Positions 2,008 through 64,000 of a stretch of 64,000 nucleotides of DNA are shown here, piece after piece. A program made the translations under genes and the position numbers. The notes under the pieces were generated by a model. That model saw only the letters and a program-made list of their open reading frames with translations, was not told where the DNA came from and made no database searches. Each line of letters starts with the position of its first letter. Positions within the stretch are counted from its first letter, which is position 1. The stretch spans positions 1 through 64,000 of the IMG/VR virus record IMGVR_UViG_3300044940_000489; one strand, 5' to 3'. Source of the DNA: a virus.

Positions 2008-4058
2008 TATTCTGGATCTCCTGCGTATACGTATCCTGAAATATCGTGCAGACCAGGATTACTTGGATACGTGACGATAACAGACAAGAAAATGCCTGAT
2101 GCTACAAGCTTCTCTATTAATTTCTGTGCCTCAATCCTTCCGGCAATAGTTCCGGTTAAATAAGCTCCATAGTCTGTGCCGTCCTGCTTAGGCTTGTACG
2201 CTTTTATATTAGTAAGTAGGGCTATGTCTTCTCCAGGCACGTGAGACTTTTTAAATTTATAAGACGGGTCTATAAGCAGGCTGTTGCTTGATGGTCTGCC
2301 GTAGTAGCGTATTGGCCCCTCTTCTGAACTAGTCCCGAATCCAATAATTAAAAACCCCTCTTTGTCAGGGAATTTTGAAGTGTCGGCGCCTACCATTACA
2401 GTTTTAAGCTCGCCAGCACCGATAGTTTCTTGAAGCGTAGTGGAAGTTTTAGCAATGGGGAGCCCGCTTGTTGGATTAAACAGGTATGACCCCAAATACT
2501 GGCTATTAGTATTTGTTTCGTGAATGTGCCAGCTTCCGATAAGTTCCCGCTTCACAATTTTAGTTGTTGCCGGCAGAAACACCACGATTTCATATGGATT
2601 AACTTCGTATACAGTAGCATATCTGTTGAGCTTTAGTAGATCGGTTCTCTGCGGCTTATAAAAGACAACATCGTTTGAAAAATCTTGTGTGTATGTAAAC
2701 GTATTAGCTGTCGTGCCAGTAATAGTAAATTGGCCGTTGAAGCTTGAGTCCTCGACACCAAAAATATTAACAACCTGTCCGGTAGTGTACCCATGATTAG
2801 CAGTAGTGGTAATGGTGGATGTACCCGAAGAGCGGACAGCTCCTGACGATGGAGCAGCTATCGTCGCCTCATGAAGTACAGTGCCACCTCCAGATGACGC
2901 ATTGGGACCTGCCTGTGCATATGTAAAAGTGGTTGGTCCTGCAGTAGCCACAGTGAAGGTGCCATTAAACGAGGCATTGGCCACATCTACTATTCTGATT
3001 TTTTGACCAACGCTAAGGCCATGGGCTACAGTAGTTGTAATTGTTACAATATTTGACGCCCGAACTGCCCCGGTAGGTGCATCGGCCATGGTTATTGAGC
3101 GCCTTACTGTGCCTAACCCTGAATTTGCACTGGCGCCAGATAAAGTTACTGGAGCCTGCGGCTTAAAGAGCGGATTTATTATCTCAAAAAAAGCTGCACC
3201 GACTGAGCCGCCCTGAACATTTTCAATGGTAAAATATCCACGGTTTGCGTCAAGATACGCAGATCCGTATATATTGACATAATCGCCAACATCGACAAAA
3301 TTAAGTCCCGGATCTGGCCCCGAAGTCCAGGTAAATCTTACATACGGCCCATTGAAACTAGTTGTAAATTGAGTATTGATTTTAGGCGAAGCCTGCTTAT
3401 CGGCGGGGAATCTTAGAGAATTCTGGGCCTCGCCGCCTATTACAGTAATGGAGGATTTTGGGCCTTTTGTTCCAGACAATAGCTGAACATATTTTTCGCC
3501 GGTATCGTTGTCTAGAGCGACCGAAGCGGTGAGCGTATATCCCTGATTAAATGCTGCATTAGATATTGCATTGGCGACTTCTTCAGCAGTGGCAAGACCT
3601 ATATTAGAGAAATCTGATTCTTTAAAAGTAACAGTAAGTGGCCTATCGTTAGTATCTACTTTAATAACTAAAGTCATGCCATCATCGAGAATGTACTTTT
3701 CAGGTTTTCCAGAAAGGACATTCGCTCTGGTGGCATCTTCGCCATAGAAAATTTCAAGTACATCTAGGAAGATATTATTAACAAGCTTGGAATTCGTCTG
3801 CTTAATGGCAATTTCTCTAAGCAGTGCGTCGTCAATGCCGACTCCAGGGGGCCGAGTAATGCCTATGCCAGCCAGTAGCTTATCTAGAAAAACTCCTGAG
3901 GCAGTCGCCAGAAATAGCTGCTCTTTAACTGCAATAATATTATTGCGATTAATATCGTCCCCAACAGCAATCGCCTCAAGCAGGCCGTTTGTGTACAGCC
4001 CCTTGATTCTGCTATTTAGAAACTTTCTTAAATCTTTAAAAGAGCCCTGATCTGACAT
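2007..4058 (-). CDS. baseplate wedge protein with beta-repeat (E1 FCCH-like) domains
   Basis: N-terminal LATASGVFLDKL..GITRPPG...DDALLR typical of wedge proteins downstream of baseplate J; two TITTT.AHG..VG....FNG.F repeats. Confidence 0.65.
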   Translation of the reverse strand: MSDQGSFKDLRKFLNSRIKGLYTNGLLEAIAVGDDINRNNIIAVKEQLFLATASGVFLDKLLAGIGITRPPGVGIDDALLREIAIKQTNSKLVNNIFLDVLEIFYGEDATRANVLSGKPEKYILDDGMTLVIKVDTNDRPLTVTFKESDFSNIGLATAEEVANAISNAAFNQGYTLTASVALDNDTGEKYVQLLSGTKGPKSSITVIGGEAQNSLRFPADKQASPKINTQFTTSFNGPYVRFTWTSGPDPGLNFVDVGDYVNIYGSAYLDANRGYFTIENVQGGSVGAAFFEIINPLFKPQAPVTLSGASANSGLGTVRRSITMADAPTGAVRASNIVTITTTVAHGLSVGQKIRIVDVANASFNGTFTVATAGPTTFTYAQAGPNASSGGGTVLHEATIAAPSSGAVRSSGTSTITTTANHGYTTGQVVNIFGVEDSSFNGQFTITGTTANTFTYTQDFSNDVVFYKPQRTDLLKLNRYATVYEVNPYEIVVFLPATTKIVKRELIGSWHIHETNTNSQYLGSYLFNPTSGLPIAKTSTTLQETIGAGELKTVMVGADTSKFPDKEGFLIIGFGTSSEEGPIRYYGRPSSNSLLIDPSYKFKKSHVPGEDIALLTNIKAYKPKQDGTDYGAYLTGTIAGRIEAQKLIEKLVASGIFLSVIVTYPSNPGLHDISGYVYAGDPE

Positions 4059-36374: not shown

Positions 36375-37639
36375 CAGCTCCCACGACTAAAGTCATGGGG
36401 TTCCTGCTTCATAGCTCCAACTACCGTTGATCGCTCCACAGGCTTTATTTATGCTTGGAGGGCTGACCTCTCCTCCAAGTGTTCGCATTAATGCGAAACG
36501 TTTTATATTTTTTGCTGCTAATATATCCCTATCATGGGTAGTACCACATGACGAGCATGTCCAAAACCTGTCTTTCAGGGCTAAACTATCATTCTTAGCT
36601 CCGCAAGTACAGGTTTTTGAACTAGCATCAAACCTACCAATCTGTATGACATTTTTGCCATACCAATCGGCCTTATACTTAACCATACTGACGAATTTTG
36701 ACCAACTAACCGAGCTAATTGACTTGGCTAAACGGCTATTTTTCATCATCCCAGAGATGTTTAAATCTTCAAAGCATAAAGCGGCAATTTGGTTCTCTGT
36801 CACCAATTTATGCGATAATTTATGAAGAAAATCATCTCTCTGGTTGGTTATTTTTTCATATGTTTTTGCTAACTTAATTCTTGCTTTTTCTCTGTTTTGA
36901 GATCCTTTTTGTTTTTTTGATAATTCCTTATGCCTTTTGACAATTTTCTTTTCTGCTTTTTCTAAAAACTTAGGGTTAGGAATTTTTGTACCGTTAGATA
37001 AAACTAAGAAATCTTTAATTCCTAAATCAATACCTAAAGTATTGTTTTCATTGATTTTTTGTTTGTTAGGCAATTCTAAGCCATCTTCAACTAAAATTGA
37101 AATATAGCATTTATTAGTTTTTGATTTAGAAACTGTACAGGTTTTAATGGCGCCTTGAAACTTGCGATCTTTAGCAAACTTAACATATTTCAATTTTGGG
37201 ATGAATACTTGGTACTCTTCAAAATCTACTTTAACTCCTTGTGGAAAATGACAAGATGCCTTACTTCTTCTCTTTGCCTTAAACTTTGGGGAGTCTGAAT
37301 TTTTTCTAAAAAAGTTAATAAATGCTTTATCTAGATTTTTTAAAGATGCTTGCAAACTTTGCGAATAAACATCATTTAACCATCCAAATTCTTCTTGTTT
37401 TTTAAGTTTTGTTAATTTTTTAATTAAATCAAAACAAGATAGATTTGTTTTATCTTGTTGATATTGTTTAGTTTTTTGTTCTAGCCCCCAATTATAAATA
37501 AAACGTGCAGCCCCAAAAAACTGCTCTAGTTTTTTGGCTTGCTCTACAGTTGGGTATATTCTATATTTATAAGATCTAATCATATATATTATGCTGCACC
37601 AAACTTATTAACACCACTATTATATCATTTGGTATTTTC
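36371..37639 (-). mobile_element. IS200/IS605 (IS1341-type, tnpB-only) element lacking the left-end hairpin
   Basis: right end ...CCCATGACTTTAGTCGTGGGAGCTGTCAG; left junction TTAT|GAAAATACCAAA without subterminal hairpin; no tnpA. Confidence 0.85.
36393..37583 (-). CDS. tnpB: RNA-guided nuclease TnpB
   Basis: YKYRIYPT N-terminus, RuvC-I GIDLG, RuvC-II FEDL, Zn ribbon SSKTCTC..CSSC, RuvC-III HDRD.AA.NI; all catalytic residues present. Confidence 0.95.
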   Translation of the reverse strand: MIRSYKYRIYPTVEQAKKLEQFFGAARFIYNWGLEQKTKQYQQDKTNLSCFDLIKKLTKLKKQEEFGWLNDVYSQSLQASLKNLDKAFINFFRKNSDSPKFKAKRRSKASCHFPQGVKVDFEEYQVFIPKLKYVKFAKDRKFQGAIKTCTVSKSKTNKCYISILVEDGLELPNKQKINENNTLGIDLGIKDFLVLSNGTKIPNPKFLEKAEKKIVKRHKELSKKQKGSQNREKARIKLAKTYEKITNQRDDFLHKLSHKLVTENQIAALCFEDLNISGMMKNSRLAKSISSVSWSKFVSMVKYKADWYGKNVIQIGRFDASSKTCTCGAKNDSLALKDRFWTCSSCGTTHDRDILAAKNIKRFALMRTLGGEVSPPSINKACGAINGSWSYEAGTP

Positions 37640-37754
37640 ATAAAAATTAGGTTTTTAAGCTAAGTGCTTGTTTTTATTAAGATTTTATATGGTTATTTAT
37701 TGTACTATTTATTTTTTAGGGCCTGTAATTTGCATTAAATTTAGGTATTATTTA
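37640..37754. repeat. ~115-bp direct repeat (copy 2) with late-promoter motif facing tnpB
   Basis: near-identical to 30108-30221. Confidence 0.9.
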
Positions 37755-37793
37755 CTGACAGCTCCCATGCCTTTAGGCGTGGGAGCATGTCAG
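37755..37793. mobile_element. 39-bp REP-like palindrome made of two IS right-end tips
   Basis: CTGACAGCTCCCATGCC-TTTA-GGCGTGGGAGCATGTCAG. Confidence 0.75.
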
Positions 37794-37813
37794 TCAAAAA
37801 ATGGCATTCAATT

Positions 37814-39298
37814 CTAGGTTAGTGCCAAAGACCAACGCTTCTTGCCGCAATTCCATATTCTAAAATAGCCCTGCTCTAGCCTTAGCTGATGCTCAGTCTT
37901 TCCTGTTGTACGCTCTTGAGCCGTCTTTTTAAGAGATTGCTTGGAGTATCTATTGGGCCCCTTAATGTAGCTATAATCTGGCTTCATGTCTTCTTCCATA
38001 GTGAAGCCGCAAGCCTCGTAGACAGCGCCGTCGCTTATAGAGTTATCGGACCAAGTTATAATGGTCTTGTAGCGCATACGGATCAGACTTGGCACCGAAT
38101 GAGAGATTAATTTCTTGGCACCGCCAACAATACTTATTCCTGATTTAAAGCAGAGGCGATTCAGTACTATTTGGCCCGATCCTGATCCCCTGTGGTGTTT
38201 GCCGTAGGTGACTACGCCGACAATCTCTTCTTTATGTAATAGACCTACGGCATATTGAATTGAATTCGGGGCACCCTGAATATGATACTTGTTGAGAAAG
38301 GCTTTGGCCTCCGGAGCCACTATCTCGCGTGCATCACAATCTCTTGCGTATATTTTTTTATTTATTCCTAGCTTAGAAGACAAGTAGCCCTTTACTTGGT
38401 CTTTTCTGTCTCGCCACTGGTCTTCAAAAATGTGTATAACCTGCTTAATACCATTAGCCTTAGCTAGCTTGTTCTTATTAATGTGATAGTTTGGCCCCTT
38501 TCCCGTAGCTTCCGAATGCCAGTAAAGGCCGTTATACTCGATTCCGATATTGAGATCCGGAATATAAATATCAATTTCTAATTCGCGACCAAACTTTTTG
38601 CGATTTAGTGCATTAATGCCCAAAGAGCGTACCCATTCAAATAGCTCTACCTCACACTCTGATGTGCCAGTCATGTATCCAATGTTTGCGGCGCTAAATG
38701 CCTGGTCCACCATTCCAAGATCTGAAAGATATTTGGCTGCTCCGGAATATTTTTTATTAAACTCATTTCGAGTCTTGCACTCGGCCATCTTGTCTACACA
38801 GACATCGAACGTCCATTTTTTGTTGACAGGCTTGCGCGGAGCTTTCGGGATAATCGCTTGAACTTCAGACAGCATGCCAGCTTTTGAGGCGTACATATAC
38901 GCTTGCCTGTATGTTTGCCTAAAGGCTGTATAGCTCTCACATTGCCTAGCAATATCTAATACAGATTCTTTGGTCCACTTTTTATTGTGTGGTATTTTAG
39001 GGCTGGAGCGGAAGACCGATTTTAATTCTTTTAAATATCCGTTCGCAACAGCATGCTTGTAGGCGCCTGAGTATTTCTGTATAAAATCTGATATATTGGC
39101 GGACTCTTCTGTCTTGGATAGTACTAGGTCTTTTGTCCAATTAGTGACCGCCTGATCCATATGCTGGCACACTTGATTGAGCCACCCATTTCTATGCGCA
39201 GCGGCATAGTATGGCCGAGCACGCTTTTCAAACTCTTTGCGAAAAGAATATTTCTTGGCTTCGATTGCGATAGATTCAAGTGTATATTTTTTAGTCAC
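37814..39298 (-). CDS. putative homing endonuclease (PD-(D/E)xK, Hef-like) with N-terminal DNA-binding repeats
   Basis: repeated (K/N)WT...Y..A...G.L modules, EIDIYIPDLNIGIEYNGLYWHS, KIYAR.C, WSD, GYFRIWNCG. Confidence 0.75.
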   Translation of the reverse strand: MTKKYTLESIAIEAKKYSFRKEFEKRARPYYAAAHRNGWLNQVCQHMDQAVTNWTKDLVLSKTEESANISDFIQKYSGAYKHAVANGYLKELKSVFRSSPKIPHNKKWTKESVLDIARQCESYTAFRQTYRQAYMYASKAGMLSEVQAIIPKAPRKPVNKKWTFDVCVDKMAECKTRNEFNKKYSGAAKYLSDLGMVDQAFSAANIGYMTGTSECEVELFEWVRSLGINALNRKKFGRELEIDIYIPDLNIGIEYNGLYWHSEATGKGPNYHINKNKLAKANGIKQVIHIFEDQWRDRKDQVKGYLSSKLGINKKIYARDCDAREIVAPEAKAFLNKYHIQGAPNSIQYAVGLLHKEEIVGVVTYGKHHRGSGSGQIVLNRLCFKSGISIVGGAKKLISHSVPSLIRMRYKTIITWSDNSISDGAVYEACGFTMEEDMKPDYSYIKGPNRYSKQSLKKTAQERTTGKTEHQLRLEQGYFRIWNCGKKRWSLALT

Positions 39299-59400: not shown

Positions 59401-62246
59401 GCGGCCACAAGATTAGCATTATGCTTCTGCTCTTTCTCTTCTGGATTCATTCTTTTAAACCCAGAACTTGATCCCTCAATGTAACTAGATACTGAAGGAT
59501 AGTTCCTTAGGGCATGTGTGGGGTCTAAATTAGAAAGCCGCTGATGGTGCTCACGAAACTTTGTCGTATGGTGATCTGCTAGTTTTTGGTGCAAATCAAT
59601 GGTATCTGCGTCCATCGGAACGCGCCGATCGGATATTCCAGCCATAGGCGGATAGACTTTGGCTGCAGCTAAATTTTTATGAGCCTGAGCCAGCCAAGCG
59701 TGCGTATCCATTCCTGCTGCATGATCCTCAAGGAGTGCACCGACTGGAGTTCCAGTTGTTTTTCTTCCAATCTTTTTACGGCCCCCTTCAGTAAGGGGAA
59801 GCTCTTTATTATGGACTGGCTTAAAGCCCATAGATCTAGGCACTTTCTGGTAGCTCTCTTTATACACCGTATGCACTTTGTCAGCATTTGTGTGAGATGC
59901 CTTAGATTCTGGCGAGTGAGTGGATATTATGTTCACTCCGTTATCTTTGGCCATCGAAATTACTTTGTTGATAAGAGCTTCTCGCCAGTTCTTATGGTAA
60001 TTAATAATCTTGTTGACGTGCTCGGCCTCTTCAGACTTATCATTTTGATCCAAATAATCTCTGGCTGCAGATCCGAAATCTGACTGAACTTCATCAATCA
60101 TCCAGTGTCCTGGCTCATGAGTATCTACTCGTGCCCAAGCAATCGTATTAAGATTAGTGGGATGACCGGATCTTTGCGATACTTCTTGAATTTTTTGAAA
60201 TATTTTGTACGTGTTTGGATCTGCCTTAATTGGAGCAATAGACTCATTTGAGTGGTCTAGGCGAACGACAACCTGATCTCGATTGTTAATATTCTGCATC
60301 TTACTGCCATCCCATACTCCGTAAGAAATATTATAGTTGGTTTTAGGAATGGAGTCGCGAATCTTCTGCAATTCTTGTGAGGATAGTTTTCCTTTTTCTC
60401 CAAAGATCTTTTTCCAATTATCTTTAATATTTGGATGTATTTTATTTAAATGTCCAATATCAATAGAGCCGCCATTAGCGTCCGCATAATGCTGTGCCAA
60501 TTCTAAATGATGCTGTAGATCACCGTAAGCGTGCGTATTATTGCGATTTGGTATCAGCTCATCAAGTTTAGGTTTTAATGCAGCTTCTTTTTTAGCGGCC
60601 TCTAGGCGGGCCCTCTCTTCGGCAGTCCGTTTTTTATTTTCAATGTGCTCATTAACAGCCGGGAGCTTATCTTTCAGATGTTCAGGGAGAAAATCATAGT
60701 CTAGGTGCGCATTCTCCATTCTTTCGTCATGCATTCTTCTGGCTATTCTAGACACATCATCGGATATTGATTCTGAATGGCCTTCATAAATTCTATCCAT
60801 AGTCCGATCATCTAGGTGATCTTGTGGATTGGCACGCCTGGCCTCTAAAGCAGAATTATAGGCTTCCTGGGCCTCATCTCTTCGGGCATCATAATCGGGA
60901 TGGTCTTCAATGGAGTACGTGAAATCGTCGTCATCTGTTTGCCAATTATAATTTTCAGCAAGATGATTGTTGATCCATTCGTCTTGTTCCATTCCATCCA
61001 TTAGATCTGAGTCTTCTACGTTGTCTCTTATGTATTCACTTAATGGGTACTCTTCTTCTGCCTGATCTCTGGCATCTTCATAATAGTAATCATAGCTATT
61101 CTGAAAATCGTTTTGATTTTGAATCTTTGTTTTAAGCTGTTCTAAATCGTATCCGTGCTCATGGTTATCGTTTGCCCATTTATTGTGCATTTCAATTTGA
61201 TGTTGTGGGTCTATATGCTTATTATGAAATAATGCCCATTTTTGCTCAAAATTGCCATGACGTTTAATATAATCAATATGTTCTGGCGTTAAATGTGGCG
61301 AATTCCTAAGTATTTCCTTAGAAATGTCCGTTTTATATCCAAAGCCCGGGCTCATTAAATTATAATTTGTATCCGGCGAAGAGGCCATCTCTTCCGCATC
61401 ATCTATATCATATAGCTTAGCACCTTCATGCCCTATATATTTAGATATTATAGAATTTCTGTATGAGTGATCTTCTTCTCCAAGTAAATTTTTTGATGGT
61501 TTAATGGATGACAGTAGTTGTGGGAAAGCAGTAGCTCCTGCTTTGTTGTTATCTAGTATGTGCTTAATGTGCCTATTTTCGAGCAGATTTTTGGATGGGT
61601 CATTATGTTTTGAGTATTTATTAAGTGCTGCAACATCATTAGATTTTAATTTGTAATTAGTATTATATATAAGATGGTCGGCCAAGTCTTTATCGAAGAG
61701 CTTATGATTAATAAATTGGGATAAATCAATGTCCTTATCGGCACCGGTCTTAAAAATTTTAATTACATGATCTTTATTTAAGTTTTTTTGATCCGCTAGT
61801 GGAGTCAGATGCTCTCGGTAGGTTGAAATTGGAAATGAATCATGATTATCAATTATATGATGAATTGCCTCTGAAGATATTGGATAATCATTAATAATGT
61901 GCCGCAATCTGCCTTCATCAATATCCACATGTTTTGAGGTGGGTTTAACGCCGCCTTGCGACTGCGCAATGTGCGACAAAACTTTAGCCAGAGCCAAATC
62001 ATTATTTTTCTCGTTATTGTGTCTAGACTCATTTAGGTATTTTTTTAGTTGTGATATATCAAAATCGCTATGTCCGTAAGCGCCGGCCAATAAGTTGATA
62101 TATTCTTTATCGGTCATTTTGTGTCGGAAATACGCCGGGATGGCAGTATCGTCTGGTTTCCAAATAGCTTCGCCACTCTTGTCTTGTAGTGTGGGGTGCT
62201 TCAATTTGGCAATATATTTTGGTTCTGGAACTTTAAATTTAGCCAT
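56400..62246 (-). CDS. large polyvalent protein (1948 aa): two helical-repeat/E(I/V)QSD modules flanking a GNAT domain
   Basis: IAWAR..IDEVQSDFG and IGWVR..IDEIQSDFG; VNPQHAGHGHGKLAY. Confidence 0.7.
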   Translation of the reverse strand: MAKFKVPEPKYIAKLKHPTLQDKSGEAIWKPDDTAIPAYFRHKMTDKEYINLLAGAYGHSDFDISQLKKYLNESRHNNEKNNDLALAKVLSHIAQSQGGVKPTSKHVDIDEGRLRHIINDYPISSEAIHHIIDNHDSFPISTYREHLTPLADQKNLNKDHVIKIFKTGADKDIDLSQFINHKLFDKDLADHLIYNTNYKLKSNDVAALNKYSKHNDPSKNLLENRHIKHILDNNKAGATAFPQLLSSIKPSKNLLGEEDHSYRNSIISKYIGHEGAKLYDIDDAEEMASSPDTNYNLMSPGFGYKTDISKEILRNSPHLTPEHIDYIKRHGNFEQKWALFHNKHIDPQHQIEMHNKWANDNHEHGYDLEQLKTKIQNQNDFQNSYDYYYEDARDQAEEEYPLSEYIRDNVEDSDLMDGMEQDEWINNHLAENYNWQTDDDDFTYSIEDHPDYDARRDEAQEAYNSALEARRANPQDHLDDRTMDRIYEGHSESISDDVSRIARRMHDERMENAHLDYDFLPEHLKDKLPAVNEHIENKKRTAEERARLEAAKKEAALKPKLDELIPNRNNTHAYGDLQHHLELAQHYADANGGSIDIGHLNKIHPNIKDNWKKIFGEKGKLSSQELQKIRDSIPKTNYNISYGVWDGSKMQNINNRDQVVVRLDHSNESIAPIKADPNTYKIFQKIQEVSQRSGHPTNLNTIAWARVDTHEPGHWMIDEVQSDFGSAARDYLDQNDKSEEAEHVNKIINYHKNWREALINKVISMAKDNGVNIISTHSPESKASHTNADKVHTVYKESYQKVPRSMGFKPVHNKELPLTEGGRKKIGRKTTGTPVGALLEDHAAGMDTHAWLAQAHKNLAAAKVYPPMAGISDRRVPMDADTIDLHQKLADHHTTKFREHHQRLSNLDPTHALRNYPSVSSYIEGSSSGFKRMNPEEKEQKHNANLVAARMSAKEIMNEGYGMPVYGHDSALKEAPASENHGHQIDLSPPKLKKSIDDADFDMEFEKLQKAPVENTNLESFDGWHDIPKSYKHVSSKQLKNGLYHHTFAGHYGPEKSPIFYHAVSDSKHPHDTHMARVQVSIEPYTNEPIVTESHVNPQHAGHGHGKLAYAAALAHHGRLESDYAVSQNAHKAWQNLNGLPSVNLSIKPMGSPDPNRAMASDVKKLRAYLYKTEDLIKDEAATRVRNGWPMPEHSARTFQDPELFESKLNDLYQKLEPLKNLEFSWEKDEAQARLHDLLDNPTYRGKYSPEVLDVIASHSDEDIRKSIHIHPNAEHSRHIKPAIDRDRAAWIAKVQKALSSSSGALPSSVPVHEDANLDDWQLNWLASHGDTRANNYAINHPNAEPRHIEKAINTVLARKHPYKDDSFWLKLGNNPKTTEDQLMLAHRQVSPHYRTHLSKKLRERGIYTDPNQVEFALGTNKLRSARDHIINNGSEGKMHKKDLELAGHSPQALGISHLLDGTGHIHHEDIQRHIDAQPKMKFGFSKTSYGSEDSPRYLEDMLSDHLEAFNPEDYGVHKSDFLDYGKIKKYHNKQFKPDFDETDFDSHEEYEQALDDARRDWEDGFNLDDYDYLAEKDDKYLDKDSYEREVQSAKDRHMDNFDSGDYGVTHEQAYENALEEQRHTYEPSEVFQLNFTKEHADKMKESGVWGTFKNMQEASKRSKHPVLDNTIGWVRYTQDQQGNTHIDEIQSDFGQSFIKQAQKQIKDALSSGQINQQQAEQAYANAHAKWPEEHYNKINEILFNNKHPNEILHEAFLQHLRDNNRVGSKVHIWDSKEKADLSGMSSSGYINLQDIGKIINNDLSVGDRLPPATVNHAKNWIKQQGMTPENWEAKSKEIIRQQRPLLSESEIESYPISFPMPVPAHMQFTYNQHPKKMGYKPSKYGELETQHNPYLKGKSTWSDTLKKKEKLDPDQIEKLKNLLENVENVDIDMPWNDIIKYSTHRWA

Positions 62247-62857
62247 TATTCTTTACCAAAAGCTCTACCTAAATGATATAAAAACATGTGATCGTGGTGC
62301 CCAATTTTTTGGGCATGATCTTTAGCCTCTTGTATGGCTATTGATCTATTGTGTCTGTGCGCTTCCTGAAGTCGCCTAATTTCATCAGAGACGATTCCTA
62401 GTTCTTTATCCCACTCGCTCTTTTTAAGTTTATTAGATTGATCTCCAAAATTAAAGTTTAACTTAAAGTGAACTGGACCTTCGTCCGTGTGCATGACAGA
62501 GTGGTCTCCATCTGGTTTTTCTTTATAAAACTGCACTCCACTTCCATGCACAGAAGTACCAGCTTGAGGTCCATTCAAATATTTAAGTTCGTGTTTATTG
62601 TCCATTGAATGTATGACTGACTCCTGCCCTAGTTGTCTAGCCATTTCAGTCAGTCCTTTTACATTCTTTGGGTGCCTGACAAGAATAGAGCGCTCGTGCT
62701 TCCCATCATAATGACCATGCAAATCTAGTGCATCCTCTCCTGATTGCCTTAGAAACTTTACGGCCTCTTCAGTGCTGGGTACGCCGGAAGCGGTCACCTG
62801 ATGCTTCGGATTTTCTACAGAGAAAATAAAATAATGTCCAGGCAATACATGCTTCAT
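62246..62857 (-). CDS. SAM-lyase-like / DUF3293-like protein
   Basis: S.ENP, GHY....ERSILV, ARQLGQESVI. Confidence 0.5.
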   Translation of the reverse strand: MKHVLPGHYFIFSVENPKHQVTASGVPSTEEAVKFLRQSGEDALDLHGHYDGKHERSILVRHPKNVKGLTEMARQLGQESVIHSMDNKHELKYLNGPQAGTSVHGSGVQFYKEKPDGDHSVMHTDEGPVHFKLNFNFGDQSNKLKKSEWDKELGIVSDEIRRLQEAHRHNRSIAIQEAKDHAQKIGHHDHMFLYHLGRAFGKE

Positions 62858-63999
62858 GGCATTTCCTCTCTGTGTACTGGAATGCTATGGAACAATGCGA
62901 CCACATTAGGAAGTGTACTTTTAGAGTTGTAAAACCCGTGATAGCCTGCGTCTCTTATTTTGCCTAAAACCATGTCTGAATTGTAAGCCCCATTATTTGC
63001 GTCAACAGCCGCCTTAATGTGTCCCTCATGGTCATTTGCAAGATCATAGAGCTTATGCGTTTCAGGCAAAGTTACATGATATTTGCTTACTGCACCTTGA
63101 GTTACCAAATGCTCTGGCTCAGAATCGGCCCTATAGAAATAGCTTCTGCGTACTTCTGGAACTCCGTGCCTCGTTTCTTGGGACGGAGCGCCTGTTCCCA
63201 TGTAATTGGGGTCAATCTGTTTGAGGCCCTTAACTCTTGAGAAATGTATTAAATTTACTGGAGCGGATTCGCTTCTCTGGAGCTGTTCTGTGGCCGGCCT
63301 AAAATTATTAAGCAAGAATCCAGCTTTAGGGTGATACCTAAGCAGTCCTTCCTCAAGCATTTTAATGACCAATTGCCCCTCCGGAGAATTCCTATTATTT
63401 AAGGATTCGTGCCCATGACTGCCGCTATGCCTAACCATTATATCGCTAATTGGCTTATTTTTCAAATATTTAGATTGATCTTCTTTAACGTATGGCGTAA
63501 CTAGATGTTTGTGATCGTGATAGGCTTTAGACCAATGTGGACGACTATCTTCTAGTAAATGTTGGACAAGATTTAGCTCTGCGTTTCCTCGCCCTGGATA
63601 GCCACTTTGTCCTGCAGGATTGCCATTGCCGCTTCGATCTCTTCCTCGCTCCAAATCATATTCAAGTCCTGGCCGTAAGCCTCTACTACGGATCGGATCT
63701 CTTCCTTGGTCATCTCTGATACTTTTTTGGACATTTGGTGACTCCTTTATATTAAAAATGAAGTCTGTTGGTCCTGTAGCAAGTCCGTGCCGCTGCTTAG
63801 CCGTAATCTTCAGTTGATTGGGCTTGCTTGTATCTATATTAAAGTTATCATCGTTTAAAAGCAAGCTTTTTAGGTGTCTGGCTCTCAAAACGTGACGGTT
63901 CTTTTCGCGGTCATGGGTCGGTATAACGTGCCTATTGGGGTCTTTTTGTATTCTTTGAATTACTGCTTCCATAGCTTTTTTATGCTGCGGAGTAGGCAT
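62854..63999 (-). CDS. multidomain protein with C-terminal ART-PolyVal-like domain
   Basis: after LQRSE: LIHFS, DP...GTG, SYFY, LYDL, AGYHG, VVALF; start lies at the window edge. Confidence 0.6.
   Translation of the reverse strand: MPTPQHKKAMEAVIQRIQKDPNRHVIPTHDREKNRHVLRARHLKSLLLNDDNFNIDTSKPNQLKITAKQRHGLATGPTDFIFNIKESPNVQKSIRDDQGRDPIRSRGLRPGLEYDLERGRDRSGNGNPAGQSGYPGRGNAELNLVQHLLEDSRPHWSKAYHDHKHLVTPYVKEDQSKYLKNKPISDIMVRHSGSHGHESLNNRNSPEGQLVIKMLEEGLLRYHPKAGFLLNNFRPATEQLQRSESAPVNLIHFSRVKGLKQIDPNYMGTGAPSQETRHGVPEVRRSYFYRADSEPEHLVTQGAVSKYHVTLPETHKLYDLANDHEGHIKAAVDANNGAYNSDMVLGKIRDAGYHGFYNSKSTLPNVVALFHSIPVHREEMP
63573..63734 (-). CDS. nested 53-aa acidic protein (overlapping frame)
   Basis: AAGGAG-7nt-ATG; MSKKVSEMTKEEIRSVVEAYGQDLNMIWSEEEIEAAMAILQDKVAIQGEETQS*. 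Confidence 0.65.
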   Translation of the reverse strand: MSKKVSEMTKEEIRSVVEAYGQDLNMIWSEEEIEAAMAILQDKVAIQGEETQS

Positions 64000-64000
64000 T

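Follow-up and report, generated by a model that had tools for sequence, protein, structure and literature searches.

A 53-codon gene probably embedded out of frame in the linker of a phage gene with an ART-like C-terminal domain

Introduction

Can a linker that looks odd and unconserved in one phage protein be the coding sequence of a second protein, read in another frame? This question is raised by a minus-strand gene near the end of a 64,000-nucleotide stretch of viral DNA (bases 1-64000 of the 119,536-bp IMG/VR virus record IMGVR_UViG_3300044940_000489; hereafter, the window). The gene (hereafter, the host gene or host open reading frame [ORF]) carries a G/R/D/N/S/P-rich linker, and in the +1 frame of this linker lies a 53-codon ORF with a ribosome-binding site of its own. 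The original prediction, made from the sequence of the window, read this nested ORF as an immunity or antitoxin protein hidden in the gene of its toxin. Here we present comparative and compositional evidence that makes it highly probable that the nested ORF is a genuine embedded overlapping gene, whose translation we infer from an internal start within the linker; its product would be a 53-residue acidic protein of two helices, and the host frame would read the same DNA as a spacer.

Results

The nested ORF consists of 53 codons and a TAA at positions 63573..63734 on the minus strand, with the ATG at 63734..63732 and the stop codon at 63575..63573. Its Shine-Dalgarno motif, AAGGAG (63747..63742, minus strand), is located 7 nt ahead of the ATG and encodes Lys-Glu in the host frame, and the ORF with this start signal is thus present as described in the original prediction. 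Only four +1-frame codons separate the upstream +1-frame stop from the nested ATG, and an A6 homopolymer follows the ATG. The nested ORF lies wholly inside the host ORF, on the same strand and in the +1 frame, and has a start signal of its own; this is what defines an embedded gene. The host ORF had been delimited as 62854..63999 (381 codons), since the window edge falls at an internal Met of the ORF; in the complete record it spans 62854..64305 and comprises 483 codons. The part that precedes the nested gene is therefore 190 residues long, rather than the ~85 residues first proposed. This N-terminal module (residues 1-190, reaching 64305; in the window, 63736..64000, minus strand) is basic (pI 9.6). 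It is followed by the linker (residues 191-245; 63571..63735, minus strand), which is open but is not conserved as protein, and by the C-terminal half (residues 246-483 and the stop; 62854..63570, minus strand).

Relatives of the host protein were found at two levels. A protein search returned P0002 (840 residues, 89% identical) and P0003 (560 residues, 62% identical), both composed of the N-terminal module, the linker and the C-terminal half, and these are the only two proteins in which the N-terminal module is conserved. Six further proteins (P0004-P0009) have the C-terminal part alone in common with the host protein. Metagenome contigs, when scanned, yielded L002 and L003, both of the P0002 type, and nothing further; they differ at 1 of 1322 positions and therefore represent one lineage. 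No further DNA relatives were found among viral contigs (searched with the host protein, the small protein and two degenerate DNA patterns), among genome contigs (alignment A1) or in a phage collection (blastn).

The alignment with L002, which is 84% identical, covers 1372 nt and contains 215 differences. In the upstream flank of the nested ORF, 57 of 83 differences fall on host codon position 3, with a ratio of non-synonymous to synonymous substitution rates (dN/dS) of 0.079 and a dS of 0.96. The downstream flank gave 90 of 107 (dN/dS 0.033, dS 1.09), so that 147 of the 190 flank differences are on host position 3. Across the 162-nt overlap the pattern is displaced: 15 of 25 differences fall on position 3 of the nested codons, which is position 1 of the host codons, and the distribution over codon positions differs between overlap and flanks with a chi-square p of 1.4e-9. 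Read in the nested frame, the overlap has a dN/dS of 0.103 at a dS of 0.80, close to that of the flanks, and the same 25 differences give a dN/dS of 1.12 in the host frame and 1.40 in the third frame. Host-frame amino acid identity to L002 is 36/55 over the linker, compared to 141/157 and 225/238 over the flanks. When synonymous and non-synonymous changes were counted in all six frames, the nested frame was the sole open frame rich in synonymous changes (9 synonymous, 11 non-synonymous). Two antisense ORFs on the plus strand, 63537..63719 and 63620..63817, were excluded by 1 versus 19 and 2 versus 20 synonymous versus non-synonymous codons, and stops interrupt the one antisense frame with the same wobble position. 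Overall, the substitution pattern indicates that purifying selection acts on the nested frame.

The start signal is conserved together with the reading frame. The Shine-Dalgarno sequence, the 7-nt spacing, the ATG and the position of the stop are unchanged in L002 and L003, and the small protein is identical to its L002 version at 44 of 53 residues, with mostly conservative replacements. P0003 is known from protein alone; its host-frame residues fix the first and third base of each +1 codon, which allowed the small protein to be threaded, gap-free from the conserved NVQKSI, through the P0003 linker. At 36 of 53 +1 positions, including one forced Trp, the linker allows the residue found in the small protein, and the same threading at 3516 other offsets in seven proteins gave 9.7±2.75 with a maximum of 19. 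As we read the threading output, the P0003 residues KVKGATN ahead of the start are compatible with AAGGAG-N6-ATG. Conservation of the ribosome-binding site and frame in relatives had been named as a check of the original prediction, and the DNA of L002 and L003, the protein P0003 and the dN/dS of 0.10 bear it out for site, frame, start and stop alike. These same data bear on the idea that the ORF is a relic, swallowed when the host gene was fused, no longer translated or useful, and with too little time to have decayed. Its presence in a narrow lineage only and the older look of the nested frame by codon usage (below) would fit such a relic. Decay, however, should bring dN/dS toward 1 and introduce stops, and at a dS of ~0.8 the ratio is still 0.10 with Shine-Dalgarno sequence, ATG and stop intact; moreover, the P0003 lineage, at 62% identity, still permits 36 of the 53 residues. 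We therefore regard a relic as improbable.

Codon usage within this genome points to the same stretch. A codon-usage likelihood model, for which 46 further long ORFs of the genome supplied the training set, was applied in 20-codon windows. The +1 frame was favoured in each of the 7 consecutive windows whose starts range over host residues 191-221 (posterior 0.88-1.00), and outside residues 191 to ~245 the likelihood prefers the host frame almost everywhere. For comparison, we collected from 68 host ORFs of the genome every nested ORF on the same strand that runs in an alternative frame for 40 residues or more, 84 in all. The nested ORF tops this set with a log-likelihood gain of +8.9; the next two have +1.6 and +0.4, all others are negative, and it alone among the 12 best alternative-frame ORFs carries a Shine-Dalgarno motif. 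The scan of these 84 nested ORFs gave no second case in this genome. The codon switch, taken with the selection on the nested frame, supports the earlier claim that the R/G/D-rich linker is what a real small coding sequence looks like when read out of frame.

The start signal is one that this genome uses routinely. The record contains 14 AAGGAG-N5-9-ATG sites, and all 13 of the others open ORFs of 94-873 codons; AAGGAG at a 7-nt spacing with a conserved ATG is thus the genome's normal start signal. The RNA around the nested start shows no excess of structure over shuffled sequence (z -0.20 and +0.19). We also considered programmed +1 frameshifting, by which the small-ORF sequence would be joined to the N-terminal module. 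Two observations would fit such shifting: a Shine-Dalgarno-like sequence is located a short way upstream, an arrangement also known from the prfB shift site, and the upstream stop and the ATG are just four +1-frame codons apart. However, there is no slippery +1 site in this four-codon window, and the dnaX-like heptamer A-AAA-AAG lies in phase with the third frame, which stops interrupt. Because the slippery sequence is not phased in the translated frame, and because a Shine-Dalgarno sequence at 7 nt from a conserved ATG is the usual start signal, the frameshift was rejected, and we give it the least credence of the alternatives considered.

The host frame, in turn, is kept open across the nested gene. 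It is stop-free there in the present genome, in L002 and L003 and in P0003. Given the small protein and the codon usage of the genome, the exact probability of a stop-free host frame is 0.0074 for the present sequence and 0.042 for L002; empirically, the corresponding frame is open in 19 of 2197 55-codon windows of long genes. Nested codons that end in T are scarce (4 of 53, versus 31% in the genome's genes) and those that end in A are not depleted (15 of 53). At the 19 junctions where a T would make TAA, TAG or TGA, none carries T. A null obtained by permuting the ORF's own codons was uninformative, since T-ending codons are already near absent from it. As P0003 is also open, and the stop-free state has low odds by chance, the 483-residue protein is taken to be real, with its linker constrained only to openness. 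By these measures the overlap DNA appears to give the large protein no more than a flexible spacer, stop-free and poor in hydrophobic residues, that joins its two halves.

An artefact, whether of assembly or of gene calling, would remove the overlap altogether: the region might hold three separate genes, or compensating indels, and the 483-codon ORF would then not be one protein. The lack of host-frame amino acid constraint over the nested stretch and the A6 homopolymer after the ATG could both be explained in this way. Against this stand the open host frame in the present sequence, in L002/L003 and in P0003, set against a chance of ~0.007-0.04, and the identical frames in the independent assemblies L002 and L003. 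In addition, contig pieces from two further runs span the start (63646-63836) and the stop (63478-63687) of the nested gene with 0 gaps; the contig pieces obtained across X9-X12 are short and of low depth, leave much of the stretch uncovered and add no new substitutions inside the nested ORF. Just past the small ORF, the sequence holds no Shine-Dalgarno motif or start for a separate gene of the C-terminal module, and a search for shorter split proteins gave only the C-terminal fragment P0013. An artefact is accordingly very improbable.

The small protein is predicted to have a mass of 6.0 kDa, a pI of 4.26 and a net charge of about -7.5, and has neither Cys nor a hydrophobic N-terminus. An AF2 model, built on an alignment of only two sequences, has helices at residues 10-27 and 30-43 and a disordered tail (mean pLDDT 76). 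The description of the product as acidic and helical therefore agrees with the calculated pI and with the two modelled helices. Searches of the 53-residue protein against Pfam, PHROGs and NCBIfam gave sub-threshold noise and no family, including no known antitoxin or immunity family. Among 5.8 billion clusters there was no protein of 29-93 residues that shares words with it, the ESM Atlas gave no usable match for it or for the N-terminal module, Foldseek found no match to its model in the PDB, and BLASTP of the 53-mer against P0004 gave nothing. Its sole profile match, P0012, was not accepted as a homologue, as it consists of a 22-residue motif in an unrelated 321-residue repeat protein. P0012 looks secreted and contains five copies of a ~45-residue unit, whose first 22 residues resemble residues 3-24 of the small protein; the match has an E-value of 1.3e-10 summed over the repeats, and Pfam gives weak summed matches to UBA-like and Fis-type helix-turn-helix domains.

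The host protein as a whole yielded only sub-threshold noise against Pfam, PHROGs and NCBIfam. Its C-terminal half, 238 residues long, has homologues in P0004-P0009 and P0013 and ends in an ART-like domain (the final ~140 residues, 345-483; 62857..63273, minus strand) that is common to other multidomain phage proteins. A model of this half built from 10 sequences has a mean pLDDT of 64.5, mostly 76-89 over model residues ~100-238. Nearly all top structural matches of the C-terminal domain are of the ART fold, and they are weak, as a Z below 8 may mean a common fold only. The best match is 9k3a_B, a cyanophage pre-ejectosome chain (Z 6.4, root-mean-square deviation [rmsd] 4.5, 125 residues aligned), followed by 6fkg_A, MbcT (Z 5.7, rmsd 4.0, 113 aligned), 6d0h_A, ParT (Z 5.6, rmsd 4.4, 114 aligned), 4ae1_A, the diphtheria toxin CRM197 (Z 5.5, rmsd 4.2, 119 aligned), and 6kyf, an anti-CRISPR protein that we take to be the ADP-ribosylating AcrIF11 (Z 4.9, rmsd 4.5, 114 aligned); 9r35_D (Z 4.9) is among the matches to type II ART-fold toxins. 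The best Foldseek E-value for the domain was 0.03, and PDB sequences searched with a profile of the C-terminal half yielded no meaningful match (E 0.48 and 0.85). In the modelled comparison, the match to 9k3a_B hints that related domains belong to ejected virion proteins.

The C-terminal module contains a near-invariant His, H354, in a predicted strand and an invariant Tyr, Y391, in the next strand. Three Asp residues are invariant (D421, D425 and D444), among which the strand-5 position is not settled. The H-Y-D ART is the commonest protein-modifying domain of polyvalent proteins, with His in strand 1, Tyr in strand 2 and Asp in strand 5 (PMC5512222). The His, Tyr and Asp residues of the host protein would suit such an active site, which is putative, as the strand assignment is uncertain. 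The domain partners of the module vary among relatives: P0002 has GNAT, DUF5661 and a Tpt1/KptA-like match below the Pfam cutoff, P0006 and P0007 have DUF3293, and P0008 has mCpol. As a family, these are polyvalent proteins in the sense of unrelated conflict-type domains shuffled among relatives; the present protein itself has two modules only.

Fusion and fission are active in this gene family. In P0002, ~370 extra residues, which include the Tpt1/KptA-like, DUF5661 and GNAT matches, are inserted between a shared leader and the N-terminal module, and P0009 fuses a module of the gene next to the host gene to the C-terminal module; it is from these two cases that we draw this view. The neighbouring gene (62246..62857, minus strand) encodes 203 residues, and its start overlaps the host stop in an ATGA (62854..62857). 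Its product and the N-terminal part of P0009 share 39% identity (E 1e-26); in P0009 that part is fused to the same ART-like C-terminal module. The 203-residue product also has an S-AdoMet-lyase-family match below threshold (E 0.0014, 19 bits versus a cutoff of 28). The first ~21 residues (64243..64305 of the genome; L001:2744-2806, minus strand) are near-identical in the 483-residue protein and P0002, and one may speculate that this short conserved leader could be a capsid-targeting or processing signal.

The genomic neighbourhood is a structural module. Genes for terminase, portal, protease and major head protein are located upstream of the host gene, a tail-fibre-like protein adjoins it, and giant proteins and the tail sheath lie downstream. 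The phage is an uncultured one of the myovirus type, and the host gene is on its late structural-operon mRNA. Upstream of the nested start, a scan for promoters and terminators detected nothing promoter-like. Within the host ORF, ~110 nt past the nested stop, there is a TTGAAA-17-TATAAT (63437..63465, minus strand; 11 of 12 positions of a sigma-70-like consensus), which may be due to chance, as 1 such site was found in the region versus 3.1 expected in shuffles. Beside the tail-sheath gene, 36393..39298 (minus strand) holds a transposase (phrog_506, E 2e-122) and an HNH/homing-endonuclease-like gene (phrog_3339, E 2e-84).

Discussion

How would this locus be expressed? A late mRNA would carry the 483-codon gene with its basic N-terminal module, linker and C-terminal half ending in the ART-like domain. 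Ribosomes would initiate internally at AAGGAG-N7-ATG in the +1 frame, independently of the host start, and synthesis of the small protein would coincide in time and place with that of the large one. Within the 162-nt stretch it would be the small gene that carries the amino acid information. This gene is probably the older of the two readings, since the nested frame has the codon usage typical of the genome and the host frame does not, and the linker probably arose by read-through fusion of two neighbouring genes across it.

Four points weigh against an embedded gene as set out here. The estimate of selection is built on 25 substitutions. At the DNA level the comparison comprises a single lineage, L002/L003, and the second lineage, P0003, is reconstructed from protein. 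An exhaustive profile search of 1.84 billion representatives found no convincing homologue of the small protein. Finally, T is low at junctions without risk of a stop too (4 of 34), so that part of the stop-free state may reflect local GC (0.49 versus 0.425) or avoided hydrophobic linker residues.

What the small protein does is a separate matter, and here the original prediction fared less well. It had placed the nested gene just behind a toxin domain; the gene in fact follows an N-terminal module whose reading as a toxin is conjectural, and lies ~100 codons upstream of the ART-like core. A candidate role, possible but doubtful in our judgement, is that of an unpackaged binding partner which, inside the producing cell, keeps the ART-like module silent or escorts it. 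The part of the argument that concerns a partner or immunity role is weakened by the relatives of the module. Thirteen viral loci with the same C-terminal module were examined, of which 12 have a closed host ORF, and none of the 12 has a nested coding-like ORF (the best scored +2.4, with a TTG start and no Shine-Dalgarno sequence); tblastn of the small protein against the 13 loci gave nothing better than E 1.6. The ART-like module thus does not generally need a nested gene. With no second case among these 12 closed host ORFs (13 loci) or in this genome, the suggestion that such nesting is a general design of polyvalent-protein genes was not supported within this sample. We consider it unlikely that the small protein is a cognate inhibitor or escort from an antitoxin-ART toxin bicistron, captured into a packaged polyprotein through read-through of the antitoxin gene, in another frame, by a gene upstream, and that hidden +1-frame linker genes form a general and so far unannotated layer of non-packaged helpers for packaged effectors in phage polyvalent or giant virion proteins.

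A different reading of the same gene, which we hold to be a substantial possibility though short of an even one, accepts the nested gene as real and takes its product as an independent small effector, for example an acidic anti-defence or host-takeover protein, with the nesting a by-product of genome economy or gene fusion. Anti-defence activity is common among the small acidic proteins of phages. The occurrence of the same C-terminal module in 12 closed host ORFs without a nested gene speaks for this reading, as do the small protein's lack of resemblance to any known antitoxin or immunity family and the lack of co-constraint in the host-frame linker. On the other side, the nested gene is necessarily transcribed together with its host gene as part of the late structural module, which fits a shared task, and the products of Rz/Rz1, the embedded pair studied in most depth, form one complex (PMC5295617); neither point is a test.

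Whichever role the small protein has, the embedded gene itself would have several implications. Gene callers suppress ORFs nested in longer ORFs, and the comparative signal here is as clean as that of the flanking domains. It would also mean that a multidomain phage effector gene can borrow another gene's DNA as a linker, which suggests a route to polyvalent proteins by read-through fusion across a small gene without loss of that gene. If it is true that the small protein controls the ART-like module, the two would be a toxin-inhibitor pair with stoichiometry and timing set by one mRNA, and as a separate polypeptide the small protein need not be packaged with the large one. A single host-silent change (ATG to ACG, which keeps the host Asn) removes the nested start.

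Among known systems, the host family resembles the polyvalent proteins (Iyer, Burroughs, Anand, de Souza, Aravind 2017, PMC5512222) in being mosaics of conflict-type domains, and the host gene sits in a comparable context, between head and tail genes; the 483-residue protein is small for this class. The words "overlapping" and "frameshift" are absent from the text of PMC5512222, and "embedded" and "nested" refer there to peptidase domains and a hairpin fold; a second-frame gene in polyvalent proteins is therefore not described in it. Our literature search, made at the level of search listings, found no toxin gene with an out-of-frame immunity gene inside it and no nested gene in polyvalent proteins. 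A second likeness is to the type II toxin-antitoxin pairs ParT-ParS, MbcT-MbcA and RES-Xre, whose ART-fold toxins are among the best matches of the host C-terminal domain. In such systems a small gene directly upstream of the toxin gene encodes the inhibitor, and the small gene described here is also upstream of the ART-like module. The antitoxins of these systems are about twice the size of the 53-residue protein, however, and it has no sequence similarity to antitoxin families; moreover, it is encoded out of frame inside the ART-bearing gene and not by a separate cistron.

Overprinted genes, such as those of phiX174 and others (reviews PMC8227390 and PMC6195259), offer a third comparison. 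There too, two frames share one DNA, one with a composition typical of the genome and the other biased and disordered-looking. In the classic cases the new frame encodes a new functional protein, whereas here the atypical and probably newer frame is a mere spacer.

The closest parallel is Rz/Rz1 of lambda (PMC5295617), where a complete small gene with its own start is likewise enclosed in a larger phage gene and read in the +1 frame, and constraint is complementary, with sensitive parts of one protein placed over silent, linker-like parts of the other. The nested gene described here also overlies an unconstrained linker of its host, and the complementarity is total, with no detectable host-frame amino acid constraint across it. 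The proteins themselves differ from Rz and Rz1: the small one has no signal sequence and no Cys, hence no lipoprotein box, and is not a spanin, and the host is a soluble multidomain protein of the virion module rather than a membrane protein. The architecture is thus a known one, of the Rz/Rz1 type, and this gene is a further instance of it.

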